Assembly (NCBI GenBank): GCA_045588675.1 | Contig: JAZNER010000004.1 | Location: forward strand, 12,498 to 76,497 | Reading direction: 5' to 3' | DNA length: 64,000 nt | Source: Eubacteriales bacterium | Lineage (GTDB): Bacteria > Bacillota > Clostridia > Oscillospirales > CAG-272 | Shown here: positions 35,899 through 53,842 of the stretch, piece by piece | Numbering within the stretch: position 1 is the stretch's first letter | Layout: each line of letters opens with the position of its first letter | Made by a program: the position numbers and the translations under genes | The notes under the pieces: model-generated | Database searches by the model: none | The model's input: only the letters and a program-made list of their open reading frames with translations | What the model was told of the DNA's origin: nothing

Positions 35899-35917
35899 AT
35901 TTTGTCCCCTCCATTTT

Positions 35918-37263: not shown

Positions 37264-37293
37264 CAAAACAAAAAAGTGGTACGATGTACCACT
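37264..37293 (-). terminator. hairpin plus T-run immediately outside attL; probably the original tRNA-Ser terminator
   Basis: AGTGGTAC-GAT-GTACCACT followed by TTTTTTGTTTT on the minus strand, 10 nt beyond the partial tRNA copy. Confidence 0.6.
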
Positions 37294-37302: not shown

Positions 37303-37325
37303 TGGCGGAGAAGGAGAGATTCGAA
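37303..37325. repeat. attL: 23-bp copy of the tRNA-Ser 3' end
   Basis: TGGCGGAGAAGGAGAGATTCGAA, identical to 53613-53635. Confidence 0.9.
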
Positions 37326-37432
37326 TTTTCCTTCCTTTGTGTTACTACGTATTACTACGTGTTACCGAGTACACAAAACCCCTTATGGCACATAGGTTTC
37401 GTGTTACCGAGTGTTTCTATGTGCTTCCGGTT

Positions 37433-37488
37433 AAGGGGTAAAATAAGGGGTATAAGGGGTATAATAAGGGGTAAAAATCGGGGTATAA
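37433..37488 (+). repeat. five direct copies of AAGGGGTA(W)AA (putative integrase arm-type sites, left arm)
   Basis: Copies at 37433, 37445, 37454 and 37466, plus a variant CGGGGTA at 37479. The 22-mer ATAAGGGGTATAATAAGGGGTA recurs at 53507-53528. Confidence 0.6.
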
Positions 37489-37633
37489 AAACCGCTCTAT
37501 TTTCCCCTCGGTTTATTTCTCCCGAAAACAAACAAATCGCGCCAGAGCGCAAAATTTCGCCCCTCACGGGCATTTGCGGAGCGGAGAGAGATATAAAAAG
37601 CGGAGAGCGGCACAAAACCGCTCTCTCGTCGTT

Positions 37634-37825
37634 TTATTTGTCCTCGCTCTTTCCAATGCACTGGTAAATATAAGCCCTCAACAAAGCGTTGGGAGTTGTG
37701 CCGTTGGCTTCAGCGTATTGCTTAAACGCTTCAGCATCCTCTTTCTTGATTTTACAAGCGACGTGCTTCATGTTTTCTGCATCCCACTTGTTATTAGCTG
37801 CTCTTTTAGATCTTGATACTGACAT
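37634..37825 (-). CDS. ribbon-helix-helix (Arc/CopG-like) DNA-binding protein
   Basis: I place the start at the internal ATG 37825, after an AAGGAGGTGA SD, giving a 63-aa product: MSVSRSKRAANNKWDAENMKHVACKIKKEDAEAFKQYAEANGTTPNALLRAYI. Confidence 0.55.
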   Translation of the reverse strand: MSVSRSKRAANNKWDAENMKHVACKIKKEDAEAFKQYAEANGTTPNALLRAYIYQCIGKSEDK

Positions 37826-37923
37826 AATCTCACCTCCTTGTGTAATATTATAGCACAAAATGACACGGGTGAACAGTGTTAAAATGCACAAAATACACGG
37901 GTAAACTTTGGTGATTTTGCCTA

Positions 37924-37952
37924 TTGACCACACGGGTAACCCGTGATATAAT
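37924..37952 (+). promoter_or_regulatory. consensus promoter with a palindromic operator in its spacer
   Basis: TTGACC (37924-37929), 17 nt, TATAAT (37947-37952). The spacer contains the perfect palindrome CACGGGTAACCCGTG. Confidence 0.7.
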
Positions 37953-38011
37953 AGAGACACAAGGGGCGAAACCGCACCGACCAAAATCTAAATCCAAAAG
38001 GAGAACACAAA

Positions 38012-38281
38012 ATGAGTATCAACGAAATCACCACCAAGGCAAGAGAGCTCAAGGAGCTTAAGAGAATGCAGGAAGAGCTTGCAGCAGAGATCACCGCCAT
38101 TGAGGACGAGATCAAGGCGACCATGGGCGACAATGAGGAGCTGATCGCCAGTGAGTACAAGATCACTTATAAGACCGTCAGCTCGTCGCGCCTGGATAGT
38201 AAGGCGCTCAAGGCTGAGCTCCCGGAGATCTCCGAGAGATACACCGTCAAGACCTCATACCGTCGCTTTGTAGTAACATAA
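38012..38281 (+). CDS. hypothetical coiled-coil protein
   Basis: 89 aa with an AAGGAG SD. No family recognised. Confidence 0.55.
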   Translation: MSINEITTKARELKELKRMQEELAAEITAIEDEIKATMGDNEELIASEYKITYKTVSSSRLDSKALKAELPEISERYTVKTSYRRFVVT

Positions 38282-38417
38282 AGAAAAGCCCCATACAAGA
38301 CCGCACCGACCAAAGTAACGTCTGTATAGAGCTTATAACCACCACCAAGAGCGGCTACATGCTTATTATAGCACAGCCGCTCTCAAATGTCAAGAAAATT
38401 TATATTGAGGTTGAAAT

Positions 38418-38606
38418 ATGAGAGTTGCAGATATTGCTATCAGAATGAAAAGCGCAAACAATAGAGCGATTGTTATCGACAAGAAAACAAAAAAAGTTTA
38501 TTTTAGCGGCATAATAAAAGACTTAAGAAATGTTTTGTGGGGAAACTACAAAAGCGTAGTAGGTATATCCATATCCGATAATATCATTATTCTTGAAACA
38601 AGATAA
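38418..38606 (+). CDS. hypothetical protein
   Basis: 62 aa with a GAGG SD. Confidence 0.4.
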   Translation: MRVADIAIRMKSANNRAIVIDKKTKKVYFSGIIKDLRNVLWGNYKSVVGISISDNIIILETR

Positions 38607-38758
38607 CCCCCTTGTATCAATCGGGCAAGTAGCACACAAGGGGGAGTGAACATATGCACTAATAGGCGCGCACGATCTTAAGTGAGAGCATTGGCGCGAT
38701 ATACATATATATAAATTATATCATATTTTGCAACATTTATCAAGAGGAATTTTATAAT

Positions 38759-39073
38759 ATGAGCAACTTTTTTAAAGAATTAACTAACGAAGAGAGAGCG
38801 GTGACATCCGCATACATAGAGAAAATCTCAAGCACGTGGGCGCAGATAACAGATGATTCAATGCTCCCGATGTTGGCGCCAGGCGATGTTGTCCGGACGT
38901 TGCCGCTCCCAGCAAGAGAGAGCGACATTGTTCTTGCTGAGATAGACGGAGAGCTTATTGTGCGCCGTCTGAGCGGTGATAAGCTCGCACCCGATAACAA
39001 AGGCTATAACGAGATTCCGATAGCTTTAGAGAAAATCCTGGGACGCGTGGTGCAGATTATAAAGAGCGCATAA
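38759..39073 (+). CDS. stand-alone S24 (LexA/UmuD-like) peptidase-domain protein without an HTH
   Basis: 104 aa. ITDDSMLPMLAPGDVV matches the GDSM-x-P-x(4)-GD Ser motif. The LexA TVKRL equivalent reads IVRRL. Confidence 0.65.
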   Translation: MSNFFKELTNEERAVTSAYIEKISSTWAQITDDSMLPMLAPGDVVRTLPLPARESDIVLAEIDGELIVRRLSGDKLAPDNKGYNEIPIALEKILGRVVQIIKSA

Positions 39074-39084
39074 GACAAGAGCGG

Positions 39085-39252
39085 CTAATCACCGCTCTTT
39101 CTTTTTGCTTCCTCTCTGATTCTCACCATTTCCACAATCACATCAAGGAATAGTTTTCTGTCCTCGTCGTTCTGAAACAGATCTACCATATCCACATGAG
39201 GAATAAGCGATATAATCATATCGCACAAAACATCGATCAGCTGATTATCCAT
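39085..39252 (-). CDS. hypothetical 55-aa protein, translationally coupled to the TerS-like gene
   Basis: My translation is MDNQLIDVLCDMIISLIPHVDMVDLFQNDEDRKLFLDVIVEMVRIREEAKRKSGD. Its ATG overlaps the upstream stop (ATGGATAA). Confidence 0.4.
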   Translation of the reverse strand: MDNQLIDVLCDMIISLIPHVDMVDLFQNDEDRKLFLDVIVEMVRIREEAKRKSGD

Positions 39253-39730
39253 CTGTTTCCCCTCCTTCCGGCAGATCTACCGCAGGCATAATGACAACGC
39301 CCCCTCCCTCTGCCCCCTCGTCTTCGGACATATATTTAGCCTTGAGGGCGCTGATCCTGGCGCGCTGCTCCTCAAGATCGAGCTCTGATTTGATCCCCTT
39401 GAGGTCTTTTATGTTTTTCAGAGCGGTGCTCATATCTTTAATGTCGGCAGCTCTGAGATGTCCGGGAGCTTTCAAATAGTCGCAAGCAGCCTTAAGAAGA
39501 AGATCTATCGCCTCATAACACTTGCTGTCGATCTTGGCATTTTTCTCGCTCACGTTCTCAAGAAGCTTAGCCTCCGCTCTCTCCGTTGCCGCTTTCCTTA
39601 AGGCACTCCAGCCCTCTTTTTTCGCCCTGTCGCCTATAACCGTTCGCGACACTCCGTATTTTTCGGAGAGCTTTCTATAAGACATAGATTGATCAGATAT
39701 ATATTCTTTTTTTATTTCACCCCAATTCAC
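39245..39730 (-). CDS. putative small terminase subunit-like HTH protein
   Basis: 161 aa. The N-terminus WGEIKKEYISDQSMSYRKLSEKYGVSRTVIGDRAKKEGW resembles the HTH-plus-Trp pattern of phage TerS proteins. The middle is coiled coil. Not verified by search. Confidence 0.45.
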   Translation of the reverse strand: MNWGEIKKEYISDQSMSYRKLSEKYGVSRTVIGDRAKKEGWSALRKAATERAEAKLLENVSEKNAKIDSKCYEAIDLLLKAACDYLKAPGHLRAADIKDMSTALKNIKDLKGIKSELDLEEQRARISALKAKYMSEDEGAEGGGVVIMPAVDLPEGGETDG

Positions 39731-39764
39731 AGAAAACCTCCTAATTTAACTGAACTGTACTTCA

Positions 39765-39793
39765 TTGACAGCATATTTATTTTGTGATAAAAT
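39765..39793 (+). promoter_or_regulatory. promoter for the opposite-strand membrane-protein gene
   Basis: TTGACA (39765-39770), 17 nt (ending in TG), TAAAAT (39788-39793). Confidence 0.55.
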
Positions 39794-39840
39794 GAAATAT
39801 AATCTACATTGACAAAAAATTATACATGAGGGAGAATAAC

Positions 39841-40206
39841 ATGAGAAAAAATCTATATATAACCATAGCAATTTCAATATTTATTGCGACTGTGTCGTTC
39901 TTGATATTATTGAATTTATTTTTCACAGAGAGCTTCAAAGTAGAAACATATATATGCTTTGTTAATGATAATGGATCCCACTATCATTATCCGTACTGTG
40001 ATTACACAAAAAAAGAATCTAAGCAAACAACAATATACGAAGCGCAAAAAGATGGGTATAGATTGGGAAACTGTTGTAACCCTCTCAGAAACGATAGATT
40101 TAAAACGACAATATACCTGCGAGAGCAAAACTATATTCCCCCCACAATTATCAGCATTGCAATAGCAATAGGAGCATTCTTTGTGATAAAACAAAAAAAC
40201 ACATAG
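39841..40206 (+). CDS. small two-TM membrane protein with a Cys/His-rich extracytoplasmic segment
   Basis: I place the start at MRKNLYITIAISIFIATVSFLIL, after a GGGAG SD. The motif GSHYHYPYCDY...EAQKDGYRLGNCC fits the YH-x-x-C ... GY-x-x-C-x-C metal-binding pattern. AT-rich and the only plus-strand gene in this stretch. Confidence 0.55.
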   Translation: MRKNLYITIAISIFIATVSFLILLNLFFTESFKVETYICFVNDNGSHYHYPYCDYTKKESKQTTIYEAQKDGYRLGNCCNPLRNDRFKTTIYLREQNYIPPTIISIAIAIGAFFVIKQKNT

Positions 40207-40218
40207 AATGATATATTT

Positions 40219-40250
40219 GAAAGAGCCCATATGGGCTCTTTATTTTGTTT
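40219..40250. terminator. bidirectional terminator
   Basis: AAAGAGCCCATATGGGCTCTTT followed by ATTTTGTTTATTTT, between convergent genes. Confidence 0.7.
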
Positions 40251-43200
40251 ATTTTAATTTTCTTTTGATAAACCCCTCGGAATAGCCCCTGTCAAGAAGT
40301 GAATCAATTATTTTTTTGTATTCCTCGGTGTCCCCTTGACGTAGAGCCTTGCGCGCATCACTTAGTTTTCCGAGTACATATTCGCGCTCGTCCGCAAATG
40401 CATTGTTAACAGTCTTTGCGTCGAAATGCTTCTCGGCCTTCACTTCATCCTTTATATCGTTGTAAGTGCCGTAATCGCCGGATAACACGCCCTCTACAGC
40501 CTCTTGCACACGAGAATCCTTCTCTCGAATTGCTTTTTTAATAGCCGAAGTCGCATCGCTCTCGTTTTTAAACTGAGCTTTGATTTCATCAATTCGATCC
40601 TTATCGTCGTTTATCATAGCCCTGTAAAGCTTGTCAGTTTTAGATATTTTAGTGGAAGAATAATATCCCTCGTTAAATGATAAAAAATCTCCGTTAGCAA
40701 TATCCTGTGCATGCATATAGATAGATCTTCCCGTCCTAATCAAATTGCTCGTTGGAACACCAAACACATTTCCACAGGATATTATAAGATCTTCAAAATC
40801 CTCAAATGTGAGATCATCTTCATCCTTAAAATCAGATGTCAATTTCGAAATCGCTGTAAATACATCATTTATAGCATCAAATGAAATAGATGATACAAAA
40901 TTCTCGCTGTATGCATTTGACCCGGAAGCTATGACTTGTATTATATCAACCGTCTCGCTTCCAAAATGAGGGAATATATATCCCGCAAATTCTTCTAACA
41001 TATCCATTCCCTGAACCTTCAGCCAGCTTTCTGCAGTCAGCTCGTCATCCTCGTCGTCGCGGTATCTATCGGGCTTGTATCTTAATATCGCCATTAAAGA
41101 AGTCACAATGGATCCCCACATAGCAGATGTCATTATAGCGCCTACTACCTTGCCAAGCTTTCGGGCGTTTTCCTTCGTTCCATTCTGCATAAATTCACCC
41201 ACAGCTATACGAAGATTACCTGCATTCTGATAAAGGTCTGTCTTGAACGTTCCAAGCAGCTCTGTACCAATGCCACCGCTTCTTTGGATCTCGGGACGGT
41301 GAAGCACGTCGGTCATACTCTGGGTCGTCTCAACAACCTCATCATAATATTCTGCAGTAGCCTTCAAAAGCTCCTCTCCACGCAGTCCGGTCTTTTTAGC
41401 CACGTCCTGCTTTGCATATTTCCAAAGTGACAACGCCACAAGATAGTCGGTCTGTATCATTCCCTTGCTGCCGCCTTCGGTCAAAAGTTTACCAATCCAC
41501 GTGCGTTTCTTTGCAGTCGAAAGTGACTGCAATTCTGCATCGGATAAGCCTTGCTGCCTCATCCATGCCGTCGCGGTATATTTATCTACCTCTGCGGCAA
41601 TCTTTTTGTGGTTGAACTTGGTATATACAAGATTCGCAAGCATTCGCGCAGGGCCACGGTATTCAATCACCGACGTCGCCGAGAACATAGAACCTATCTG
41701 CTTCAGTCGGACAGATATATTCATAAAGAATGTCGCTCTTATGTAGTTGCTCTTTACCTTCTTGTAAATCCTTGAGAACGCCTCGTGCTTGGTTATTCTC
41801 TCTCCCTGGAGATCCTGCACCGTCTGCTCAATTACCTTTATCGCTCCGTCGCCGGCAGTCGCTTGAATCTGCTCCTTGACAGTTGCTCCCTCTGCAGACT
41901 TAACGTTCCAAACCTTGTTGAAATTTCGTATTGCTACAGCAAGGCCGTGTATTGTTCCTACCTGCTCAATATGTCTGTCAAGCACATTATTCAGTCCGGT
42001 CATAATAAGGGCGTTTGATGATCCTTTTTGTGTCTCCTGAAGCATACCGTATGAACTGATAGTTTTCTGTATATCATACTCTGCCGATATTTCTCTCACG
42101 ATAGAGTTTCTATCCACTTCAAACGGAATATACGCATCCTCGATCGCAAGTATCCTGTGCTTGAGCTGCATATAGGTATCGTTGATTGCAGTCTTGGCAG
42201 TTTCATTGAAGAAGATCCTTGCCGCGTTCATGTAATCCTGAGCCCAACGATCCCCCTCAAGCTCTGACTTAAATTGCGCTATAAGCTTGACTGCCTCAGG
42301 TCCCAGTACCTTGTGCGAATTCTCCGCATCTATGGAACCCTTGAGATTTCCCTTTGAGAGCCTATCGAGATCAGCGAAAACAATTCCACCGTTTTCTACA
42401 TGACGAGTTTTTTTGCTAGCGAGCTCTCTTTCGTAAGAAAGAATTGCCTGCATCTTCATCATCTTGGATATTCCAAATTTGCGGTCCTTCGCATCAATGT
42501 ATATTTTGCCACCGTCAGCTTGATATACGGCATTCTCGTATGCCTCAGAGTTTTTCCCCGTGGTCAGTGCCCCAAACGTTTTTTTAGCCCCCATCACAAA
42601 GAACTGCGCCTTTCTTACACCGACCTCAAAATCCTTGAATAGCTTATACAGAGGAGAATTTCTATTATATCCGCATACCTCAAGAACACGGCGAACAGGC
42701 GAGAGAGACTGATTTGCAATTCCGTCGTTCAACTTTTTAACAGCACCGCGTTTACCGTTCCTGCGCTTATTCTCAATGTCGCGCTGCTCAGCAATAATTG
42801 TATCTCCCGCATCGTAAACGTCAACAGCCTCTTTCTGACCTATAAGCTTTCGAGCATCCTTCAGCGTGCCGTCTATCGAGTGCAGTATGCTATACATTTC
42901 CTCAAGTTCTGCAAGACTCATTTCGCTAAGAGGCTTGTCTTTGAATTTACTCTCAAGCTTTTCAAGGTAATTTGCAATAACCTCGTCAAACTCACCAGCA
43001 TACAAAGGATCCGCGTCGTTCTTGATCTTCTTATATTCCTCACGAAGTCGAGCAAGCTTCTCCCTCGTTTGTACGCGCCTTTGCTGAGCCTTATTCACAC
43101 TACCGTCTGCCTTGTAAAGCTCGGTATCGATATTAATAAGCTCGCACACATCGATCATAGCCTGTGCAAGCGCACCGGGAATATATTTTCTCTCGGTTGG

Positions 43201-46200: not shown

Positions 46201-47973
46201 TCCTTCCTCAAGCCCTTCGTCAAGCGCACCGCCTGTGATCTTTATTGCACCGTTGGCAACAGCCTTGAGTATGCTCGTACCCTTGTTTCCAAGTTTTATT
46301 GCAACTCTTGATATGGCATTATCGACCTTGGTAGCCGCTTTAGCACCAAGAGTGCTGAATACTCCGTCACCTTTTGATACTCCGGGGATATGACCGAGCA
46401 AATACTCCATGCTACCTTCGGCAACTGCGACCATCACACCGTATGTGGTTGCCTGTTCTTTGCTATATCCAAGGTTGAGCATCTCCACTTTCGCACTACC
46501 GCCTGCCGATGCACCCATAAGAGTTGCACCGACTATCGCACCTGAACCGGGTAGAGCCATATTGGATACTGTCGATGCAAGGATAGAGGGAAGCATATTT
46601 GAAGTGGTGTTTATAATATCATAGTCTACCTGTCCGAGAGAACTGCCTCCGAGCCAATCGGGAAGCTTTGCTCCTGTGTCTGAAAGGTCTTCTCTTATCA
46701 TTCCCGATGCATATTGGGTAACAGAGGTAGGTGTGTAGCCATCGGCAAACCATCCCTTGATGCCTGATTGGAATTGGTCAACTCCTGCCTCAACTGCGAA
46801 CAGATATTGGAGAACAGGCTTGCCGTCATAGGATTCCGCAATATCCTCTGCTTCTCTGTAGTTTAGAGACTCTACAATAGAGTCAATATATTGCTCCGCA
46901 AGATTGGTATTGCCTTCTTCATCTTTTTTGAGATAATATGCAAAGGTCGAAAGCTCCTTATCAGTCATTTGACGGAATACATTTATCTTTTCGGCGTTTT
47001 CCGTGTTGTAATCGCTCAACCCCTTGAGTCCCTCGATGTATCCTGCTATGCCCGATTTAGGTTTTACCATATCCTCTGTATATAATTCTTGTCCCAACCA
47101 ACGCTCATTCAAGACTAAAGTGGCTGCTTTGAGATCATCATATACCGTTAAGCCGTTCCCAATTTTTGTTGTGCCTCCGACATTCTCATACGATATATGA
47201 TTGCCAAGTTCGGCATACTTCTCAAATTCAGGATCATAGTTCTCCGACTCCACATCAGCAACGGAGGCAAGTTCAGCGGCTTTCTGCGCTCTTTCAGCAA
47301 GGGTATAATTTACCTTTTTCTCGGACAGGGCAGATTTAAGTTCAGAGCGATCTCCATACTTTGAGGTCAATTCGGCAAGGCGAGCTTGCAGTGTCGCTCT
47401 TTCTTGCTCGTTGGCATAGCCTCTTGCTCCTGCTTGAATCCCATTGTAGGTTACATCTATACTCCTCTGTAACTCCTCCATCTCGTCAACGATTTGTTGT
47501 AGATTATTTATTTCTTCCTTACCTGCATTGAGGTCGAGGCTCATCCACTCTGCGTACTGTGCCTCGTATGCTTTCTGATCCTCAACAGCCTTCTTGAAGG
47601 CATCCTCTGAATCGTATTTGGAATAGTAATCAGAAGCCAACTTAAAGTTACTCTGCAAGTCGGTAAAGGTCTGTTGCCAAGTAGCATCGTCTTCCTCTTT
47701 TGAACTTGTGCCGAGTGCCTTGCTCAAGTCTCTTAAATTGGTGCTGCTATCAATATAACTATCAATAGCCGTTCTGTATGTTTCAAGGTCTTCGGCATAC
47801 AGATACTCGCCTTTTTGAATTTTCGTGGTGTAGGTGTTTAACAGAGCGGTGGATTCCTCGTTGGCTTTCTGCCAATCATATACCATAGTCGAGTCATACG
47901 ATCTTCGCTCGGTTGCCTTGAAGGAATCGCTACCTACTTCTTTCCTGTTTTTTGTGGCTTTAAATACACTCAT
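40249..47973 (-). CDS. giant 2574-aa multidomain protein with an HExxH (zincin-like) motif; polyvalent-protein-like
   Basis: Uninterrupted 7.7-kb ORF. It has coiled-coil stretches and Gly/Ala-rich hydrophobic segments (ALPGSGAIVGATLMGASAGG, LGALTAAGFGGG, VVGAIMTSAMWGSIVTSLMAIL). HEEYH lies at aa 1122-1126 (nt 44596-44610). I see no NTPase, methylase or relaxase motifs. Confidence 0.8.
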   Translation of the reverse strand: MSVFKATKNRKEVGSDSFKATERRSYDSTMVYDWQKANEESTALLNTYTTKIQKGEYLYAEDLETYRTAIDSYIDSSTNLRDLSKALGTSSKEEDDATWQQTFTDLQSNFKLASDYYSKYDSEDAFKKAVEDQKAYEAQYAEWMSLDLNAGKEEINNLQQIVDEMEELQRSIDVTYNGIQAGARGYANEQERATLQARLAELTSKYGDRSELKSALSEKKVNYTLAERAQKAAELASVADVESENYDPEFEKYAELGNHISYENVGGTTKIGNGLTVYDDLKAATLVLNERWLGQELYTEDMVKPKSGIAGYIEGLKGLSDYNTENAEKINVFRQMTDKELSTFAYYLKKDEEGNTNLAEQYIDSIVESLNYREAEDIAESYDGKPVLQYLFAVEAGVDQFQSGIKGWFADGYTPTSVTQYASGMIREDLSDTGAKLPDWLGGSSLGQVDYDIINTTSNMLPSILASTVSNMALPGSGAIVGATLMGASAGGSAKVEMLNLGYSKEQATTYGVMVAVAEGSMEYLLGHIPGVSKGDGVFSTLGAKAATKVDNAISRVAIKLGNKGTSILKAVANGAIKITGGALDEGLEEGLQTVLEGWFKEIATGVDFEDPSADEVLYSSLLGALTAAGFGGGKLAIDTGVNTINTAINTSKVGNSFIKQNGQSGVGALAAQGLELNQNTAAYKQAAKVQAKLDSGKSASRYSVGKLYSSMSESQTSTAVQSRLSAHIENKTEVRKLSDTITDILYGRDVSDKALSAVAANKYALNALNDVLGSKLGKNAAVSEVRAAVQSYQEAGKSDRGGMASTKAKQGSTGKISGQSGATFSISENADSKFDVVAEADGERRALMSFKSQKQAQAAAYAMTLGMGAEGLHGLVTMSESIASGVDLGEAALAFNAFYNQGKSGKALSAAKNMELLSPEQRQYAYNLGIMDKALNSARKKNAVTDLSGENDGKVLQKDGESGKININKENANYEQGVHIRESSKRNDGKDTEGQVSAVEGGTGETEKQGSRSSQEARTARIGALVESEGLEKVSSRSLGIGNGTDTENVVVIPESEYDDGMHQIAEDQEAQGRKVVFVSGALEFVEDGKVDVARGLIAEDGKTMWIQADGVVSPEQIALHEEYHAIVKADPSRINRMKKKINKKYKGKLNVLIKMYAALYFTDENGKVTVSSKYILEEIFADAYAGIDVFEVIPDAAARATDIQEDIRGGTKALQSTRAPPGNSGVKASRLPQRGRSQEIETMENNRFERLRKYRDNLPSEWFAFTKDYYYIYSNQSFTDYTILLKVKITNRNKMAIDNFTKEIENGIDGSTTAFDSWFAHFRRGKGRYSWNSISSAGVGTTKRTNGMDGRNIQGDFRGQAWEYDISGPQKSSGNSEKITLVNETEEVLSALKSKYGVDDSEVKASRSLRSPEDVAQAYLDAVPNRLILANAIESQVTDPDAKEKLRKYKDNLSTIESKQAKLDKTKRELKDLYFSKGKRNVEKIKTLEQRRDRLQKIIDNADSWLLKYEEMKPIRELIDREKEAAYKKAVAEGKRKLAEYRERVKAHEDEIRKGYREARDKGVESRRSGDIRKKIKAFKDKHQQTLQHPTERKYIPGALAQAMIDVCELINIDTELYKADGSVNKAQQRRVQTREKLARLREEYKKIKNDADPLYAGEFDEVIANYLEKLESKFKDKPLSEMSLAELEEMYSILHSIDGTLKDARKLIGQKEAVDVYDAGDTIIAEQRDIENKRRNGKRGAVKKLNDGIANQSLSPVRRVLEVCGYNRNSPLYKLFKDFEVGVRKAQFFVMGAKKTFGALTTGKNSEAYENAVYQADGGKIYIDAKDRKFGISKMMKMQAILSYERELASKKTRHVENGGIVFADLDRLSKGNLKGSIDAENSHKVLGPEAVKLIAQFKSELEGDRWAQDYMNAARIFFNETAKTAINDTYMQLKHRILAIEDAYIPFEVDRNSIVREISAEYDIQKTISSYGMLQETQKGSSNALIMTGLNNVLDRHIEQVGTIHGLAVAIRNFNKVWNVKSAEGATVKEQIQATAGDGAIKVIEQTVQDLQGERITKHEAFSRIYKKVKSNYIRATFFMNISVRLKQIGSMFSATSVIEYRGPARMLANLVYTKFNHKKIAAEVDKYTATAWMRQQGLSDAELQSLSTAKKRTWIGKLLTEGGSKGMIQTDYLVALSLWKYAKQDVAKKTGLRGEELLKATAEYYDEVVETTQSMTDVLHRPEIQRSGGIGTELLGTFKTDLYQNAGNLRIAVGEFMQNGTKENARKLGKVVGAIMTSAMWGSIVTSLMAILRYKPDRYRDDEDDELTAESWLKVQGMDMLEEFAGYIFPHFGSETVDIIQVIASGSNAYSENFVSSISFDAINDVFTAISKLTSDFKDEDDLTFEDFEDLIISCGNVFGVPTSNLIRTGRSIYMHAQDIANGDFLSFNEGYYSSTKISKTDKLYRAMINDDKDRIDEIKAQFKNESDATSAIKKAIREKDSRVQEAVEGVLSGDYGTYNDIKDEVKAEKHFDAKTVNNAFADEREYVLGKLSDARKALRQGDTEEYKKIIDSLLDRGYSEGFIKRKLK
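43830..44051 (-). CDS. nested +1-frame ORF (73 aa) inside the giant gene
   Basis: An AAAGGAG SD lies 7 nt upstream of the ATG. The product, MELTEAQQHLIRGLLILGVEKDAIAGIVSALPALEQLNELMEWMGETFKGISEDKRGNTTSVVLKKVVEIAKK, looks like a folded helical protein. Confidence 0.4.
   Translation of the reverse strand: MELTEAQQHLIRGLLILGVEKDAIAGIVSALPALEQLNELMEWMGETFKGISEDKRGNTTSVVLKKVVEIAKK
44877..45059 (-). CDS. nested +1-frame ORF (60 aa, or 57 aa from ATG 45050) inside the giant gene
   Basis: TAAGGAG precedes it; the second ATG lies 10 nt after the SD. The product is MSKAYIYAKAANGMTVRIPKDKYPQWKAGQEKLKNKDPEALKRLAQLESELLSNLKD. Confidence 0.35.
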   Translation of the reverse strand: MQIMSKAYIYAKAANGMTVRIPKDKYPQWKAGQEKLKNKDPEALKRLAQLESELLSNLKD

Positions 47974-47985
47974 TGTATAGCCTCC

Positions 47986-48981
47986 TTAATCCTCGTATTT
48001 CAAATACTTGTTTTGAGTACCGTCCCAAATCCACTTAGTTCCATCAGGAGTCTGCCAAACATTTTGGGTCACTCCATTTATTACATCGGTTATTCCTGTT
48101 TTGGATAGTTTTTCACCGTTTATATTGTTGGGCTGATACCCATTTGACCATGTTCCGTTCTTAACATCCGGGTTGATGCTACCAGTATACGGATTAACCC
48201 CTTGCGCAAACGAAAATGTTTTTCCACCCTCGCCATACATAAAAACATTATTTCCCAAGTCATCTTGTGTTCCAGTATAAATGTACTTGGTGAATTCTTC
48301 TTCTTCGGTTGCTTGCATAGCAACACCGTAAAGATTCCAATAGGTCACATCATACCCCGAAGCCGCAATCAGCTCGGAGTCAATCTCATCTAATGGCGTT
48401 CCTACTGCCAAAAGATTATGGATTTTTTGACATGCTTCTTCTTTCTCAGCTTTCAAATTTGAAGCATCAAACTGCTGTTGCCACTGATTATCGCCTACCT
48501 TGTCTCTCCAAATCGACTGCGAAATACCAAGATTATCAATTTTTTCTTGTCTCTGTGAGTCGTAAAGAGCACGTGCTGCATCCTCAAGCTTTTCCATATA
48601 ACCGTTATACGCCTGATTTGCCGCACTTGTCGCATAGCTCGAAGCAAGACCGCCTGTACGCGCCGATACCCGCCCTATTGTGTCATCCATAGCCTTTTTC
48701 CCTTGCTCTGAATATCTCTTGGCTAGTGAGGCATAATCGTCGCCATTAGTAAAGTCATCGTAATTCATATCAGCAATCTCTGCCGCCAGCCTTTTTATGT
48801 TGGACTCAGTTCCTATAATATCTCCATCTGTCGTCCATCCCCCAAGATTCCCAAAACCTGATATCGTAGGATATGATACCTTAGATTCATCATCTATGCT
48901 TGGCGAATCGCCGTAAACAGCGTCTTTTCCATAACCTAGTCCATCGTACACCAAAGGGTATTTGTTGCTAAGCTTAATCAT
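47986..48981 (-). CDS. hypothetical 331-aa protein
   Basis: Immediately upstream of the giant gene in the same operon. The C-terminal Gly/Asn/Trp-rich segment is probably beta-rich. No family recognised. Confidence 0.6.
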   Translation of the reverse strand: MIKLSNKYPLVYDGLGYGKDAVYGDSPSIDDESKVSYPTISGFGNLGGWTTDGDIIGTESNIKRLAAEIADMNYDDFTNGDDYASLAKRYSEQGKKAMDDTIGRVSARTGGLASSYATSAANQAYNGYMEKLEDAARALYDSQRQEKIDNLGISQSIWRDKVGDNQWQQQFDASNLKAEKEEACQKIHNLLAVGTPLDEIDSELIAASGYDVTYWNLYGVAMQATEEEEFTKYIYTGTQDDLGNNVFMYGEGGKTFSFAQGVNPYTGSINPDVKNGTWSNGYQPNNINGEKLSKTGITDVINGVTQNVWQTPDGTKWIWDGTQNKYLKYED

Positions 48982-49097
48982 TTTTAGTCTCCTTAAATTC
49001 TTTAATTTCTTTTTTGAGTGTTTCGCATATATTTATAAGCTCCTCAAGCTTTTTTGCGTCCACTTCGGAAGTGTGTTCCACATTTAATAAAAATTTG

Positions 49098-49436
49098 TCA
49101 TTGTTTTGTCACGGATTCGTCCGCGCGCTTGTATAGCTTTATCCAATCGTCAAAGCACATAGTAACAAGCCAGGGCTTATAAGACTGCCGGTGGAATACC
49201 GTCGGCGCACCGTTGTGAAACCGCTCCGCATCCTTGATAGCTTGTATCATAGCCCCGGAGAGGTTCAACCGCTCTACTCGCTTGACCTCAATATGTATGC
49301 CGGGCAACCCCGAGAGATCGGGAACGTCGCCGAAGGACAGAGAGCCGCCGCGCTCGATAGTATAACCGTGATCTCGGAGAAGGGCGGCCAGCTCGCGCTC
49401 ACCGTCCGCGCCTTTTCTTTGTGATGTTTTACCCAT
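49098..49436 (-). CDS. PD-(D/E)XK nuclease, Holliday-junction-resolvase-like
   Basis: I place the start at ATG 49436 (MGKTSQRKGADGERELAALLRDHGY), after an AAGGAGAG SD. GDVPDLSGLPGIHIEVK fits D...E-x-K. Confidence 0.55.
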   Translation of the reverse strand: MGKTSQRKGADGERELAALLRDHGYTIERGGSLSFGDVPDLSGLPGIHIEVKRVERLNLSGAMIQAIKDAERFHNGAPTVFHRQSYKPWLVTMCFDDWIKLYKRADESVTKQ

Positions 49437-49641
49437 TCCGCTCTCTCCTTTCGTAGTATTCAAGCAGCATCTTTGCTGTCGTGCATTCCTTCCACTTGTC
49501 GCAACAGTACGTTGCTAAATGCGACTTGATCGCCGTTTTATCTGGGAACCCTATGCGAGAGCTCTTTTCGCACGTGATCCTTAGCTCGTCGTCTGTGATA
49601 TAAAACGGACAATTAACCTTTCTGTGCCAGTATGAAGACAT
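49429..49641 (-). CDS. hypothetical Cys-rich 70-aa protein
   Basis: Cys residues at CPF..., ITCE and YCCDKWKEC. Coupled to flanking genes by overlapping start and stop codons. Confidence 0.5.
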   Translation of the reverse strand: MSSYWHRKVNCPFYITDDELRITCEKSSRIGFPDKTAIKSHLATYCCDKWKECTTAKMLLEYYERRERNG

Positions 49642-50474: not shown

Positions 50475-50477
50475 AAC

Positions 50478-51173
50478 TTAATCCTCCCCCCAAAAAACTT
50501 TCATATCCTCGTCGGGATCGTACTTAGCAGCTCCGGTCTGTTCATCCTCCCACTGACCGCGATTCAGCCACGTTGCCGGATAGGGGATAAACTTGCCGTT
50601 CTCCTTCGTCCAGTTCTCCCAGGTCTTCTGATCCTCGATAGCCGAGATCATAACCGCAAGAAGATCCTCCGAGGGCTTTATCTTTTTAAATGCCCTGAGA
50701 GCGTCAGCCTTGCCCCTCTTGTTCGGGTAAACCTTCCAAAACCGCTCAAAGCGCCCCTCAACGACGTTAGTCGGTTGAGGAATACTCTTTTTTACAGTGG
50801 ATTTTATGTCTGTAGTAGAATCATAATCATTATCATTATCGTAATCATTATCATAATCATTATCATATTCATTATCGGTATGTTTGGTATCCACCGTATT
50901 CGATGGTATACGGTCGTATACGGTCGTATTCCAACGTTTACTGATGTTAGCCCGATTCTTCTCACACACCGCTTGATACTTTGCGTCGTCTATTTCGAAC
51001 TGATCGCAGATCACACCGAAGACAGCTTCTGTCGCCGGGCTTAATTCCGTCCGCACAAATCCGCTCGTCTTATATTCCAATATCGCCGTCAGCAGCTTTC
51101 CACGCTCCTCGATCGTCAGGCGAAGGATCGCCTTGCCGTGCTGTGGGTACAGCAAAAAAGGCTTACTATTCAC
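50478..51173 (-). CDS. putative replication initiator / replisome-organiser-like protein with an acidic (Y/N-D)n linker
   Basis: 231 aa, positioned upstream of the loader. The YQAVCEKNRANISKRWN and FERFWKVYPNKRGK...ATWLNRGQWEDE motifs are common in Firmicute phage replication modules. This assignment is from memory, not verified. Confidence 0.45.
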   Translation of the reverse strand: MNSKPFLLYPQHGKAILRLTIEERGKLLTAILEYKTSGFVRTELSPATEAVFGVICDQFEIDDAKYQAVCEKNRANISKRWNTTVYDRIPSNTVDTKHTDNEYDNDYDNDYDNDNDYDSTTDIKSTVKKSIPQPTNVVEGRFERFWKVYPNKRGKADALRAFKKIKPSEDLLAVMISAIEDQKTWENWTKENGKFIPYPATWLNRGQWEDEQTGAAKYDPDEDMKVFWGED

Positions 51174-51358
51174 TCGCTCACCCCCCTCGCCTTATCCTCA
51201 AGCCATTTTTCAAGAGCTCGCCGCGGTATCAACGCCCTACGCCCGATATACACCACCGGGAACCCCGGTTCTCTTATGAGCTTATAAGCGTATGATCGGG
51301 AGATACTGAGAGCTGCCGCGAGATCTTCAACGGTGAGCGCCATTTTATCGTCCGTCAT
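51170..51358 (-). CDS. excisionase-family HTH DNA-binding protein
   Basis: 62 aa: LTVEDLAAALSISRSYAYKLIREPGFPVVYIGRRALIPRRALEKWLE. Confidence 0.75.
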   Translation of the reverse strand: MTDDKMALTVEDLAAALSISRSYAYKLIREPGFPVVYIGRRALIPRRALEKWLEDKARGVSE

Positions 51359-51506
51359 TCTTATTGTCGCCCTCCAGCTTTTCGCGTGCCTTCTTTTCCC
51401 AGTACCGTCTTCTGTACTCTCTGACCTTTTCCTTGTTCTTCTTGCGCCACTCGTTTTGGTACTCTCGCGCCGCTTGCTTCGCCTTCAATTCAATCTTTGT
51501 GTCCAT
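51345..51506 (-). CDS. hypothetical basic 53-aa protein, first gene of the leftward operon
   Basis: My translation is MDTKIELKAKQAAREYQNEWRKKNKEKVREYRRRYWEKKAREKLEGDNKNDGR. An AGGTGA SD precedes it, and it overlaps the xis-like start. Confidence 0.45.
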   Translation of the reverse strand: MDTKIELKAKQAAREYQNEWRKKNKEKVREYRRRYWEKKAREKLEGDNKNDGR

Positions 51507-51545
51507 AATTCACCTGCTTTCTTGTTATTTTCTTTTACTTTTATC

Positions 51546-51574
51546 TTGACAAGGTATGATTCTTGTGCTAAAAT
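51546..51574 (+). promoter_or_regulatory. rightward promoter (repressor-integrase operon)
   Basis: TTGACA (51546-51551), 17 nt, TAAAAT (51569-51574). Confidence 0.6.
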
Positions 51575-51575
51575 G

Positions 51576-51604
51576 ATTATACCATAGGCAAAAGTAAAAG
51601 TCAA
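51576..51604 (-). promoter_or_regulatory. leftward promoter (xis-replication-giant gene operon)
   Basis: The minus strand reads TTGACT (51599-51604), 17 nt, TATAAT (51576-51581). Its -10 box abuts the -10 box of the rightward promoter. Confidence 0.6.
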
Positions 51605-51660
51605 GCAAAAATAACAATTATTTTAAAAAGCAAGAAAAACAAACAAACGAGGGTGATTTT

Positions 51661-52374
51661 ATGAACAAAGCAATAAACAATTACGACGCTGACAGCATTT
51701 TTCCGTCAAGGCTCCGTTCTCTGATGGATGAAAAAAAGGTTACTCAAGCAGAGCTCGCAAAGATCTGCGGCGTTCAAAGACAGTCGGTGGCGCAGTGGAG
51801 AGAAGGAAACACGCGCCCGGATATTCTTTCTCTTGGCAAGATCGCCGAGTACTTCGGTGTGTCTGCTGATTATCTTATAGGGCTAACGGATAATAAGACT
51901 ACTAACAAGGCAACGCTTGAAACTTGCGCGACATTGGGCATCACTGAAAAATCCGTTGAATTTTTATCGGATCCCAAAAATGAATATTACAGACACGGCA
52001 TTGATGTTCTGATCTCCCAGCATATAGATTCAACTCCGGAAGATCCAGAGATCCTCCCTCTGAGATCTTCTATATTGCAGAGCTTGACCGCCTTGTTTTA
52101 TATGGTGGAATCTGAAAAGGATGTATTTATAAACTACGGAGAGGGAGGGCTTAAATGTCAAGGTGGCAACATTAGCACGGTAAATATTAGAGTGCCTGAG
52201 GTTGTCGGCTTAAATCCCGACGAGAGATACACGATCTCGCTACTTGAAGCGGAGTGTTTGATAGAAAAAAGCTATATCGACGCGGCGCTTTCTGATATTA
52301 TTATTCAAGCAAGCAACCGAAATATCGTAAGAAGATACAAGGAGGCGCAGAAACAGAAAGATGAAACAACGTAA
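51661..52374 (+). CDS. cI-like XRE-family repressor with a C-terminal domain of unknown type
   Basis: 237 aa: LRSLMDEKKVTQAELAKICGVQRQSVAQWREGNTRPD. Its end overlaps the integrase start by 14 nt. Confidence 0.8.
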   Translation: MNKAINNYDADSIFPSRLRSLMDEKKVTQAELAKICGVQRQSVAQWREGNTRPDILSLGKIAEYFGVSADYLIGLTDNKTTNKATLETCATLGITEKSVEFLSDPKNEYYRHGIDVLISQHIDSTPEDPEILPLRSSILQSLTALFYMVESEKDVFINYGEGGLKCQGGNISTVNIRVPEVVGLNPDERYTISLLEAECLIEKSYIDAALSDIIIQASNRNIVRRYKEAQKQKDETT

Positions 52375-53500
52375 CGCCAAGGGTAACGGCTCGATCAGAC
52401 AACGCCCGGACGGAACGTGGGAAGCTCGGTGCTCTATCGACGGTAAGCGGCGCAGCTTCTACGGTGAGCGGCAAGCTGACGCGCTGAAGGCTATGAGAGC
52501 GGCGCAGAAGTCCGGCGACGACGGCACCTATTTTGAGCCGAAAAAGGTGCAGCTCTCACAGTGGCTCGACCTATGGCTTGAGGAATACATCAAGCCGTCA
52601 AGTAAGCCGCTGACATACACCACATATCAAAGCCGAATCGAAACGCACATCAAGCCTGCGCTCGGAAGAATAAAGCTGACCGCTCTGAACGCTACGCACA
52701 TACAAGCGTTTTATAATGACCTGCTGCGTAACAAGCAGCTAAGCCCTAAGACAATAAAGAACGTCCACGGCATACTCCACAAAGCACTCGATCAAGCTCT
52801 CAAGCTCCGCTACATAGGACTGAACGCCGCCGACGCGTGCACGTTGCCGAGAGTAGAGAAAAAGGAGATCAGACCGCTCTCTGAGGGCGAGATCGCCGCA
52901 TTTCTGGAAGTCATACAAGAGGATTCTCTGCGAGATCTGTTTACCGTTGCACTGTTCACCGGCATGAGAGAGGGCGAGATTTGCGGCCTACCGTGGAGCG
53001 CGGTGGATTTCAGAAAGGGCACGATCACCGTCAAGCAACAGCTCTGTAAGGAAAAAATAAAAGGTGGTAAGCATTACATAGCACCCACCAAAAACGACAA
53101 ATCAAGAACGCTAACCCCTGCGCCCTTTGTGCTTGAGATCTTGCGAAGGACCAAACGCGAACAGCTCGGCGCGGCTCTTGCATTCGGGCCCACTTGGACA
53201 AATGAGTTTGATCTTGTATTCACGGACAACGTCGGGCACTTCATCGTGCCTCAGACCGCACTAAAACACTTTAAGGCTGCAGCTGAAAAGATAGGCCGTC
53301 CGGATGCGCGCTTTCACGATCTGCGCCACACATACGCCGTGACTGCTCTCCAAGAGGGCGACGACGTGAAGACGGTGCAGCAGAATCTCGGACACGCTAC
53401 GGCCAGCTTTACCCTCGACGTTTACGGCCACGTTTCGGAGAAAATGAAGAAGGAGAGCGCGGCGCGTATGCAGTCTTACTTTGAAAAAATCAAAGCGTAA
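52361..53500 (+). CDS. int: tyrosine recombinase (phage integrase family)
   Basis: 379 aa. SAM-like N-terminal domain, then TGMREGE (R), HDLRHT (H-x-x-R) and LGHATASFTLDVYGH (catalytic Y). Confidence 0.93.
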   Translation: MKQRNAKGNGSIRQRPDGTWEARCSIDGKRRSFYGERQADALKAMRAAQKSGDDGTYFEPKKVQLSQWLDLWLEEYIKPSSKPLTYTTYQSRIETHIKPALGRIKLTALNATHIQAFYNDLLRNKQLSPKTIKNVHGILHKALDQALKLRYIGLNAADACTLPRVEKKEIRPLSEGEIAAFLEVIQEDSLRDLFTVALFTGMREGEICGLPWSAVDFRKGTITVKQQLCKEKIKGGKHYIAPTKNDKSRTLTPAPFVLEILRRTKREQLGAALAFGPTWTNEFDLVFTDNVGHFIVPQTALKHFKAAAEKIGRPDARFHDLRHTYAVTALQEGDDVKTVQQNLGHATASFTLDVYGHVSEKMKKESAARMQSYFEKIKA

Positions 53501-53506
53501 AATTCT

Positions 53507-53528
53507 ATAAGGGGTATAATAAGGGGTA
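53507..53528 (+). repeat. two AAGGGGTATAA copies (putative arm-type sites, right arm)
   Basis: ATAAGGGGTATAATAAGGGGTA, identical to 37452-37473. Confidence 0.6.
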
Positions 53529-53562
53529 TAACCCCAAAAAGCGCCCTAAAATAACAAAATAA

Positions 53563-53609
53563 AAAACCTTGAAATTCCTTATGATTAAAGGATTTTCAAG
53601 GTTTTTTAT
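53563..53609. terminator. bidirectional terminator between int and the tRNA 3' end
   Basis: AACCTTGAAATTCCTT-loop-AAAGGATTTTCAAGGTT, flanked by an A-run and a T-run. Confidence 0.65.
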
Positions 53610-53612
53610 TAT

Positions 53613-53635
53613 TGGCGGAGAAGGAGAGATTCGAA
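53613..53635. repeat. attR: 23-bp core inside the tRNA-Ser 3' end
   Basis: Identical to 37303-37325. Confidence 0.9.
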
Positions 53636-53704
53636 CTCTCGAACCGCTTTTGACGGTTACACGATTTCCAATCGTGCGCGCTCGACCAGCTACGCGACTT
53701 CTCC
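53613..53704 (-). tRNA. tRNA-Ser (anticodon GGA), CCA encoded
   Basis: GGAGAAGTCGCGTAGCTGGTCGAGCGCGCACGATTGGAAATCGTGTAACCGTCAAAAGCGGTTCGAGAGTTCGAATCTCTCCTTCTCCGCCA folds by hand into a cloverleaf. It has a 7-bp acceptor stem, anticodon stem CACGA/TCGTG with loop TTGGAAA, a long variable arm and T-arm GAGAG/CTCTC. Confidence 0.92.
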
Positions 53705-53773: not shown

Positions 53774-53842
53774 TATCTTTTCTAAAAAAATTTGCCTATC
53801 CTTATCTGTTTTGCTTTTTCGTCAGGGCGGTGGCACTATGCA

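Follow-up and report, generated by a model that had tools for sequence, protein, structure and literature searches.

The 64,000-nucleotide stretch of contig JAZNER010000004.1 that we analysed (assembly GCA_045588675.1, from a Eubacteriales bacterium), referred to below as the window, carries between positions 37303 and 53635 a 16.3-kb element that we regard, with a probability of roughly 0.7, as an integrated helper-dependent phage satellite belonging to an undescribed family of uncultured gut Clostridia. To judge from its sequence, the element is a member of a conserved mobile family that carries terS, the gene for the small terminase subunit (TerS), and lacks terL, the gene for the large subunit (TerL); because it encodes the one without the other, it would have to rely on the packaging motor of another genome. 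A preliminary description, made from the letters of the window, had already proposed a satellite of this kind, and the proposal is now supported by the function of the attachment (att) sites in relatives of the element, by the recurrence of the same gene order without virion genes, and by the presence of a real terS homolog.

Results

Ends of the element and its circular relatives

The element is bounded by two exact copies of the 23-mer TGGCGGAGAAGGAGAGATTCGAA, the only two in the window (Table 1); shuffled controls gave no match in 100 trials (0/100), even when two mismatches were permitted. With one copy of this core counted, the element measures 16,310 bp. An intact tRNA-Ser(GGA) gene is the sole tRNA gene in the 64-kb window, and since ARAGORN places it across the right-hand repeat, that repeat is the T-arm-to-CCA 3′ end of the tRNA. 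The preliminary description had recognised both the perfect direct repeat and its position at the end of an intact tRNA-Ser, and it had placed the end of a tyrosine integrase gene 113 bp from the core, where we count 112 nt. The hairpin with a T-run that it had seen just outside attL is present as well, with a stem at 37275-37293, and is probably the original terminator of the tRNA-Ser gene; an A-run on one side of the stem and a T-run on the other should make it usable in both directions. The replacement terminator that it assigned to the element beside the tRNA fared less evenly, in that an A/T-flanked inverted repeat is visible there and is retained in the attP of relatives, but our terminator-pattern scan missed the hairpin.

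Relatives of the element exist in a minimal form (loci L011, L012, L016 and L125) and in a cargo-bearing form (the window, L010 and L127), and the same virion-less gene order is present in at least seven independent contigs. L011 (7368 bp) and L012 (7300 bp) are metagenomic contigs whose backbone is 86-92% identical to the window at the nucleotide level. Both contain a first block consisting of a 53-aa gene, an HTH_17 gene, rep, a DnaC-like gene, a 69-aa gene, a RusA-like gene and terS, and a remainder consisting of a 54-aa gene, an S24 gene, an M78/ImmA-like peptidase gene, two small genes, the integrase and the repressor; there are no other genes. Because the ends of these contigs overlap in the way assemblers leave on circular contigs (by 141 bp in L011, whose record name carries k141, and by 55 bp in L012), we read them as circles of 7227 and 7245 bp. 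Neither has a tRNA, each has a single core copy with one mismatch, and in blastn alignments the window segments 37650->37295 and 53635->52354 meet in both of them exactly at the core. The circular attP junction that the preliminary description had proposed to look for thus exists, in relatives 86-92% identical to the window, and L125 (6.8 kb) and L010 also span an attP.

A short repeat, TAAGGGGTA, which we read as a candidate arm-type integrase site, accompanies these junctions. The window holds six exact copies, in one orientation and all beside the att sites, with none elsewhere in the 64 kb (0.2 expected), and the repeats are kept in the attP of L010, L011, L012 and L125. They are absent from L016, in a Eubacteriales metagenome-assembled genome (MAG), which has the same backbone with a different integrase (only 32% identical) and a repressor only 38% identical. 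For all backbone genes the ratio of nonsynonymous to synonymous substitution rates (dN/dS) against the window is about 0.03-0.3, indicating purifying selection.

The small terminase

Open reading frames (ORFs) were annotated by profile searches against Pfam, PHROGs and NCBIfam, and defence systems were sought with PADLOC. The profiles bear out the genes named in the preliminary description, namely an integrase, a cI-like repressor, an Xis-like helix-turn-helix (HTH) protein, a replication initiator, a DnaC-like loader, a resolvase and a TerS-like protein, and no ORF of the element matches a capsid, portal, TerL, tail, holin or lysin family in Pfam or PHROGs.

The TerS-like protein has a full-length homolog, P0135, that is 53% identical and is encoded in a phage directly upstream of a Terminase_6N TerL, in the company of a P22-type portal, a Prp peptidase, a scaffold-sized gene and a Phage_capsid_4 capsid. 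In 26 of 28 more distant loci (L017-L044, from species-representative genomes of Eubacteriales, Oscillospiraceae and Lachnospiraceae and from one Bacteroides MAG), terS is followed by a TerL homolog, and portal and capsid genes are usually present as well. The homologs split into a phage group, at most 58% identical to the window TerS, and a satellite group, at least 65% identical to it. Satellite TerS proteins form a monophyletic clade in a neighbour-joining tree, with 63-90% identity inside the clade and at most 65% to other proteins, and every context that we fetched for this group is a virion-less element with a backbone of the window type. A scan of Joint Genome Institute (JGI) metagenomes returned phage-type TerS proteins only, at 47% identity or less. 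In the element, terS is under purifying selection (dN/dS about 0.2). We consider the 161-aa protein a true small terminase homolog, predicted to redirect packaging.

These comparisons bear directly on whether the element might instead be a defective prophage, that is, a phage of a ~41-45-kb family that lost TerL through the tail genes by internal deletion. Such an origin would be in keeping with the fact that all recognisable genes of the element have homologs in this phage family, in which the p70, RusA-like and terS genes are neighbours and the homologs of two further element proteins, p331 and the giant (both discussed below), end the virion module; in addition, a full prophage, L001, which encodes the closest giant, occupies a tRNA-Ser with a nearly identical core. 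It is difficult to reconcile, however, with a virion-less order found in at least seven independent contigs at up to about 35% protein divergence and with dN/dS far below 1, with the two contigs that appear as closed 7.2-kb circles, or with the separate clade of satellite TerS proteins. A tblastn search of the window's relatives revealed no fragment of TerL, portal or capsid genes, and the order RusA - p331 - giant - (TM126) - terS is not obtainable by a single deletion from RusA - terS - terL ... p331 - giant. Since the virion-less backbone is conserved, circular and under purifying selection, a one-off deletion remnant is excluded, and we regard a defective prophage as very improbable.

We also considered that the element might be an integrative plasmid-like or mobilisable element that makes no use of phage particles, being transferred by conjugation or transformation or being immobile, and that its TerS-like protein is a DNA-binding regulator only. 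It possesses its own replication module and an integrase, its circular forms were found in bulk metagenomes and the element is absent from viral contig collections, and some database sources label TerS homologs "transposase". Satellites mobilised by natural competence, reportedly the subject of a 2026 paper, would count for the same alternative. The preliminary description had held that homology to a relaxase or a coupling protein would mark a mobilisable element; no ORF matches a relaxase, coupling protein or type IV secretion system in Pfam, NCBIfam or PHROGs, nor any oriT-associated family. The regulator interpretation must moreover contend with a TerS that has 53% identity, from end to end, with the product of the gene immediately preceding a phage terL, and with a terS dN/dS of about 0.2 that would be hard to explain without a packaging role. 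A plasmid-like element is, in our judgement, quite improbable.

A cargo insertion between the RusA-like gene and terS

Relative to the minimal circular forms, the satellite in the window contains an insertion with three genes, encoding the giant, its partner p331 and the membrane protein TM126 (the cargo; Table 1). It is placed exactly between the RusA-like gene and terS, and its limits can be placed to within a few bases: position 2548 of L011 aligns with 49092 of the window and position 2550 of L011 with 39729, and the RusA-like stop and the terS start, which are separated by 6 nt in L011, flank equivalent points that lie 9,362 bp apart in the window. L010 and L127 carry cargo at the identical junction, and the minimal forms have none. 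The 7.7-kb gene that the preliminary description could associate with no described satellite family is thus present, and our full-text literature search found no paper linking polyvalent proteins, the family to which its product appears to belong, to satellites; it is, however, part of the cargo and not of the core.

The cargo alleles of the window and of L010 and L127 have diverged to very different extents along their length, with 68% identity in p331, 43% in the N module of the giant, 80% over its residues 952-1232 and 23-28% in its C module. The flanking backbone is 93-97% identical in the same relatives, and repeated exchange with phages is suggested because the alleles differ so greatly on a nearly identical backbone. 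The giant ORF is intact, and the sole stretch that can be aligned with L010 has a dN/dS of 0.30; this value and the shared junction indicate that the cargo is maintained, and it appears either to be exchanged or to evolve fast. TM126 has a 47% identical homolog at the same place in L010, where the hairpin between its gene and the giant gene is also present. No family match was obtained for TM126 in Pfam, PHROGs or PADLOC, NCBIfam has no named family for the cargo proteins, and PADLOC detected no defence system or defence-family match in the element, cargo included.

The giant protein and its partner

We assign the giant, on the basis of its homologs, to the polyvalent-protein family. Its modules were mapped from homolog coverage and an alignment of 18 sequences. 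The 354 homologs have lengths of 2000-4300 aa, and many are on contigs of about 43-45 kb. Many carry ART-PolyVal, MuF_C, LPD3, LPD38, PBECR3/4, ADPrib_exo_Tox or DNA-methylase domains, in combinations such as ART-PolyVal with MuF_C, or ADPrib_exo_Tox with PBECR3 and LPD38, or LPD3. The window giant has no Pfam match, and only the N module, the C module and a zincin-like HExxH motif with an invariant H1122 are recognisable; the motif lies in the middle region, where the relatives carry their effector domains. The C module (window 40249-43776; about 1100 aa) matches at least 2357 cluster representatives at 50% identity clustering, and in nearly all of the 150 matches listed it forms the C-terminal end of the protein, the full-length proteins having 2000-4300 aa. 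In an AlphaFold2 (AF2) model the C module is all-alpha, with a predicted local distance difference test (pLDDT) score of 70, and among the structures in BFVD the model resembles C-terminal portions of many viral polyvalent proteins (best E 9e-43).

The partner protein, p331, has 805 homologs, many of which end in PG_binding_1/3 or LysM domains, and in its AF2 model the N-terminus is disordered, a long hairpin of helices follows, and the C-terminus forms a small beta domain. The preliminary description had pointed to the 331-aa and 2574-aa proteins as places where capsid, portal or large-terminase homology might be hidden. There is none in either protein by Pfam and PHROGs, which were the checks applied to the N module and the middle of the giant; for p331 and the C module the idea can also be rejected on structural grounds, since a Foldseek search of the two models against the PDB gave no match at E <= 0.001. 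A PDB sequence search with the giant, p331 and the 18-sequence profile produced nothing meaningful.

In phages, p331 and the giant have homologs whose genes are neighbours and bring the virion module to an end, just ahead of the endolysin. This is the case in L002 and L003, and similarly in L001 and L128, and several loci among L017-L043 agree that the pair closes the virion module. The module of L002 and L003 begins with a portal, Prp, a scaffold, a major head protein, two small genes and a homolog of an "internal virion protein" (phrog_511), and continues with a 248-aa gene, a tail protein, the p331 homolog, the giant and the endolysin. The statement in the preliminary description that the element has no virion genes needs to be qualified for this reason; nothing in it matches a capsid, portal, TerL, tail, holin or lysin, but p331 and the giant are homologous to the genes that close a phage virion module. 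We rejected the possibility that the giant is a tape-measure protein, given that it is the last virion gene before the endolysin in a module without tail-tube or chaperone genes. The position of the pair varies among phages: in the phage-like contig L005 (L005:750-14925) a p331-like protein of 694 aa with a PG_binding domain, followed by the giant, comes after genes for a DUF6291 replication protein, a single-stranded DNA-binding protein (SSB) and a dUTPase, rather than beside tail genes. The locus L126, with giant homolog P0029, was tried as another satellite and rejected, as its called genes look like the end of a prophage.

Could the giant and p331 be the sole structural proteins of a complete small virus of an unknown kind? 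Nearly half of the element is one gene of unknown structure class, and neither p331 nor the C module has a fold in the PDB, as such a virus might lead one to expect. Yet the minimal relatives lack both genes and are nevertheless circular and conserved, and the phage homologs coexist with a normal set of HK97-type capsid, portal and tail genes. We find this explanation hardly credible.

A more serious alternative accepts the element as a satellite and differs only on the giant, which would not be a payload for establishing the satellite in a new cell. It would be directed against the helper or against other phages, for instance by competing with the helper's giant during assembly or poisoning it, or else would be functionless DNA recently picked up from a helper. 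That minimal relatives manage without the cargo, and that its alleles diverge so far on a nearly identical backbone as to suggest repeated exchange with phages, would suit either version. Interference with helpers is common among satellites (PMC6092414), N and C modules shared with phage proteins would permit competition for a site in the virion, and Iyer et al. (2017; PMC5512222) remarked that captured polyvalent proteins might target incoming elements. On the other hand, the giant has no PADLOC defence-family match, and cargo occurs at an identical junction in three diverged relatives; this shared junction, an ORF intact over 7.7 kb and a dN/dS of 0.30 in the alignable stretch make neutral hitch-hiking unlikely. 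We think it unlikely overall that the giant is a weapon or without function.

Candidate helpers

The phages that encode the nearest TerS, p331 and giant homologs suggest what a helper might look like. We infer that the candidate helpers form a large family of ~41-45-kb phages of Clostridia with TerS, TerL, a P22-type portal, Prp and Phage_capsid_4 and without a tape-measure gene. Because their virion module contains neither a tape-measure nor a tail-tube gene, phages of this family should have a short-tailed layout. A tblastn search of deposited phages with the giant and TerS gave only faint matches, to unannotated faecal contigs and a Methanobacterium virus.

The L001 prophage (L001:21710-23477) encodes the closest giant, with 58% identity in the C module. 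Its insertion site is a tRNA-Ser(GCT) with a 3′ end that matches the satellite core in all but 1 of 23 positions, and its integrase is only 24% identical to that of the element. Phage and satellite may target sister tRNA-Ser genes.

Backbone genes and neighbouring features

The features of the element are collected in Table 1. The overlapping divergent promoters noted in the preliminary description are there, as face-to-face promoter-like sites with 11/12 consensus matches and an extended -10 TG; perfect nested inverted repeats at 51522-51542 / 51590-51617 are candidate operators. Rightward of this switch, the integrase is 95-97% identical to those of the circular relatives (dN/dS 0.04-0.06), while no other segment of the backbone has diverged nearly as far as the C-terminal half of the repressor. 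The repressor is 96% identical in L010, 69% in L125 and 38% in L016, and in L011 it can be aligned only over residues 1-102. A variable half of this sort fits the expectation for a sensor matched to different inducers.

Table 1. Features of the satellite element and its attachment sites in the window
Feature	Position	Strand	Evidence and remarks
Bidirectional terminator hairpin outside the element	37264..37293	.	stem 37275-37293, A-run upstream, T-run downstream
attL core, 23 bp	37303..37325	.	exact copy of 53613-53635; arms of circular relatives meet here
Four TAAGGGGTA repeats, attL arm	37432..37473	+	candidate arm-type integrase binding sites
Small accessory ORF, 116 aa as listed	37634..37984	-	conserved part is the C-terminal ~63 aa; 88% identical in L010
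Conserved backbone protein, 89 aa	38012..38281	+	phrog_434 C-terminal part 6.6e-15, phrog_1956
62-aa ORF	38418..38606	+	55% identical in L010; absent from L011/L012/L016
Stand-alone S24 (LexA/UmuD-like) peptidase-domain protein, 104 aa	38759..39073	+	Peptidase_S24 2.8e-09
TerS, 161 aa, N-terminal HTH	39245..39730	-	PHROG terS families 1206, 51, 509
Cargo insertion (TM126, giant, p331 genes), 9.36 kb	39731..49091	.	by comparison with minimal circular relatives
TM126, 126-aa membrane protein	39826..40206	+	hydrophobic N- and C-terminal stretches, Cys-rich middle; convergent with giant gene
Bidirectional terminator hairpin between giant gene and TM126	40220..40241	.	9-bp stem AAAGAGCCC/GGGCTCTTT, then T-run
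Giant, 2574 aa, putative polyvalent family	40249..47973	-	conserved N module aa ~100-750, variable middle, conserved C module aa ~1400-2530
p331, 331 aa, partner of giant	47986..48981	-	homolog immediately upstream of giant in phages
RusA-like / PD-(D/E)XK Holliday-junction resolvase, 121 aa	49098..49463	-	phrog_244 4.1e-21, weak Hjc and PDDEXK_15
Cys-rich conserved protein, 70 aa (p70)	49429..49641	-	87-100% identical in relatives
DnaC/IstB-like helicase loader, 277 aa	49641..50474	-	phrog_50 5.8e-40, IstB_IS21 2.1e-09
Replication initiator, 231 aa	50478..51173	-	DUF6291 1.2e-17 (N-terminus), phrog_270/9474 replication initiation 1e-22 (C-terminus)
HTH_17/AlpA-like excisionase or regulator, 62 aa	51170..51358	-	HTH_17 3.8e-11, phrog_66 excisionase 1.6e-07, weak Phage_AlpA match
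53-aa basic protein, first gene of leftward operon (Cro position)	51345..51506	-	phrog_14214 (function unknown)
Regulatory switch	51522..51617	.	promoter-like sites 51546-51574 (+), 51604-51576 (-), inside nested perfect inverted repeats
cI/RstR-like HTH_3 repressor, 237 aa	51661..52374	+	HTH_3 4.2e-12, phrog_8, phrog_4, phage_RstR 2.8e-14; no S24 domain
Tyrosine integrase, 379 aa	52361..53500	+	Phage_integrase 1.9e-22, phrog_1 2.9e-71; 112 nt to core
Two TAAGGGGTA repeats, attR arm	53508..53528	+	candidate arm-type integrase binding sites
Long A/T-flanked hairpin supplied by element at tRNA 3′ end	about 53561..53609	.	read from sequence; kept in L011 attP
attR core, tRNA 3′ end	53613..53635	.	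repeat match and ARAGORN
tRNA-Ser(GGA), intact	53613..53704	-	ARAGORN; promoter-like site 53773-53745 on - strand

The leftward operon is well conserved. Its 53-aa protein is 89% identical to the product of L011:145-306, the HTH_17 protein is 93-98% identical in most relatives and 90% in L125, and the RusA-like protein is 90-93% identical. Inside the rep gene lie 12-bp tandem repeats (50819-50885) and a block of palindromic repeats (50895-50941), which may be origin iterons. Homologs of the 70-aa protein, 33-42% identical, are encoded upstream of terS in phages. L127 (L127:1-370) lacks 198 bp that the window has, with the result that its 70-aa and RusA-like ORFs run together as one; the deletion is either genuine or an error of assembly.

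Within the left arm, relatives have a 63-64-aa gene at the position of the small accessory ORF, with weak RepB-RCR_reg/DUF6364 matches and no confident family in the profiles. The 89-aa protein is 94-98% identical in L010, L011, L016 and L125 (dN/dS 0.05-0.11), and the S24 protein is kept in all relatives at 59-71% identity (dN/dS 0.2-0.4). The neighbourhood of the S24 gene differs: where the window (38396-38795) and L010 have a 62-aa ORF, the minimal relatives carry two unrelated genes, one for an M78/ImmA-like metallopeptidase and one of 85 aa (L011:3476-4134 and the equivalents in L012 and L016), so that the family may run two different induction circuits.

Two observations concern the surroundings of the element. 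Just upstream of the promoter-like site of the tRNA-Ser gene, the window contains 5.3 copies of the 13-bp tandem repeat ATGCTATTGCAAA (53838-53905). Immediately to the left of attL lies a block of low GC content (34611-36985; 33-36%, against about 45% elsewhere) that encodes a D12 N6-adenine methyltransferase, a 179-aa PD-(D/E)XK-like protein and an N6_N4 methylase, and that looks like a type II restriction-modification island adjoining the tRNA-Ser hotspot.

Discussion

From the att sites, circular relatives, conserved architecture, homologies and cargo boundaries described above, we infer how such a satellite might be induced and packaged, with the help of which phages, and how its giant might come to be loaded. 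Induction of a helper phage, or infection by one, would inactivate the repressor, whose variable half would serve as the sensor. The element would then excise as a circle at the 23-bp core and replicate from its own origin, and the satellite TerS would pair with helper TerL and thereby bring about headful packaging of satellite concatemers in helper capsids. A head of ~41-45 kb would be filled by about six units of 7.2 kb or by 2.7 units of 16.3 kb. Cargo-bearing members would also have p331 and the giant taken up by the virions they hijack and released from them along with the satellite DNA, and would in this way contribute their own version of an injected pilot or effector protein. We suspect that the N and C modules of the giant would provide for virion incorporation and ejection and that the variable middle, with its zincin-like peptidase, would be the payload; alleles of the cargo would be swapped repeatedly with helper phages at the fixed RusA/terS junction. 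On the evidence of gene context, Iyer et al. (2017; PMC5512222) argued that virions carry polyvalent proteins and inject them together with the DNA. That the satellite's own giant is loaded into helper-built virions and replaces part of their injected protein payload is an idea we put forward tentatively, as possible and not yet as probable.

Several points weigh against the interpretation of the element as a helper-dependent satellite or against parts of it. No helper phage is present in the 64-kb window. A scan of IMG/VR viral contigs with TerS, p331 and the TerS alignment found no satellite, and a megablast search of deposited phage genomes with the whole element found no match; neither collection thus provides direct evidence that the element is encapsidated. 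The circular contigs could alternatively derive from tandem arrays. In the cargo-bearing form, a terminator and a gene of convergent orientation stand between terS and the long operon, so that terS would have to be transcribed from a promoter of its own, for which the candidates, at about 39765-39850, are consensus-level sites only. The association of the giant family with virions would follow from gene position and from the argument of Iyer et al. Finally, phage-inducible chromosomal islands (PICIs), the satellites to which the element is most readily compared, use a primase-replicase, whereas the element has a DUF6291 initiator and a DnaC-like loader and no primase or helicase domain in Pfam or PHROGs; and no gene of the cpm/ppi type, for capsid morphogenesis, capsid-size redirection or interference, was recognised in the ORF profiles, although such a gene is likewise absent from SaPI-type PICI variants (PMC10085698).

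If the element is the satellite we take it to be, its setting is of some interest. Satellites are well studied in staphylococci, enterobacteria and vibrios, but scarcely any work concerns those of the strictly anaerobic Clostridia prevailing in the gut. Both the satellite family and its presumptive helpers are unmatched among deposited phage genomes, and the 7.2-kb core is among the smallest cores of TerS-encoding satellites. Relatives with and without the 9.4-kb cargo constitute a natural knock-in/knock-out pair for studying the function of the giant, whose N and C modules, both conserved, are the hallmark of a very large family of viral proteins of 2000-4300 aa without a solved structure or a Pfam model. 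Should it prove true that the giant is loaded into virions, satellites would be able to change the protein payload of the particles they hijack, something of which we found no description. It would then be the first known case of a satellite that tailors the injected proteome of hijacked particles, with the recipient cell receiving the satellite's private set of effectors, and it would offer a tractable entry to the function of a giant viral protein family with at least 2357 members at 50% identity clustering.

Comparison with known systems places the element near, but not within, a recognised class. The phage-inducible chromosomal minimalist islands (PICMIs) of Vibrio are not known to carry terS, and they depend on virulent helpers. 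Together with the marine virion-encapsidated integrative mobile elements (VEIMEs; PMC9618062), they resemble the element as very small integrative assemblies of integrase, regulator and replication genes with little else, and no homology evidence ties either to its family. By analogy, p331 and the giant might be compared with the ejection proteins of short-tailed phages (T7 gp14-16; P22 gp7/16/20) and with the N4 virion RNA polymerase, in that the helper module lacks a tape measure and includes a phrog_511 homolog and that relatives of p331 carry cell-wall-binding domains; similarity of either protein to solved ejection proteins was found neither by sequence nor by fold in the PDB.

The giant resembles the polyvalent proteins (PMC5512222) in its multi-module make-up, in the domains of its homologs, in its HExxH motif and in the late position of the family in phage virion modules. 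It differs in being encoded by a satellite and not by a phage or conjugative element, in being among the shortest members of the family, and in having no effector domain recognisable by Pfam. The ~650-aa N module and the ~1100-aa all-alpha C module, neither with a Pfam match here, would define a subfamily.

Capsid-forming PICIs (cf-PICIs) are also satellites with some homologs of phage structural modules, but they encode capsid, portal, head-tail adaptors and TerL (PMC10085698), none of which the element has by Pfam or PHROGs. Nor do its ORF profiles contain the head, tail, packaging and lysis modules of an intact prophage. Judged by the criteria for PICIs in PMC6092414 and PMC10085698, the element has an integrase with a specific att site, a divergent regulation module and a small terminase homolog. 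Another of these criteria, an att site in which no prophage is ever found, can be set beside the L001 prophage, which occupies not tRNA-Ser(GGA) but a tRNA-Ser(GCT) with a nearly identical core. Because the element has no primase-replicase and no capsid-morphogenesis gene, and because its cargo makes the criterion of structural genes ambiguous, we would describe it as PICI-like and not as a PICI; neither does it appear to be a cf-PICI, a prophage, or an integrative mobilisable or conjugative element (IME/ICE). Further differences from PICIs lie in a core of only 7.2 kb, in a host among the uncultured gut Clostridia, and in a cargo that includes a 2574-aa putative polyvalent protein. With the Gram-positive PICIs, that is, the Staphylococcus aureus pathogenicity islands (SaPIs) and their relatives, and above all with those that have no capsid-remodelling genes and are packaged as multimers in full-size helper capsids, the element nonetheless shares a site-specific tyrosine integrase, a divergently transcribed master repressor without an SOS-cleavable domain, the order of Xis/AlpA-like gene, replication module and terS, the absence of capsid, tail and lysis genes, the presence of accessory genes beyond terS, and its size range. 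The divergence of the repressor C-terminus among its relatives likewise resembles the diversity of Stl among SaPIs.

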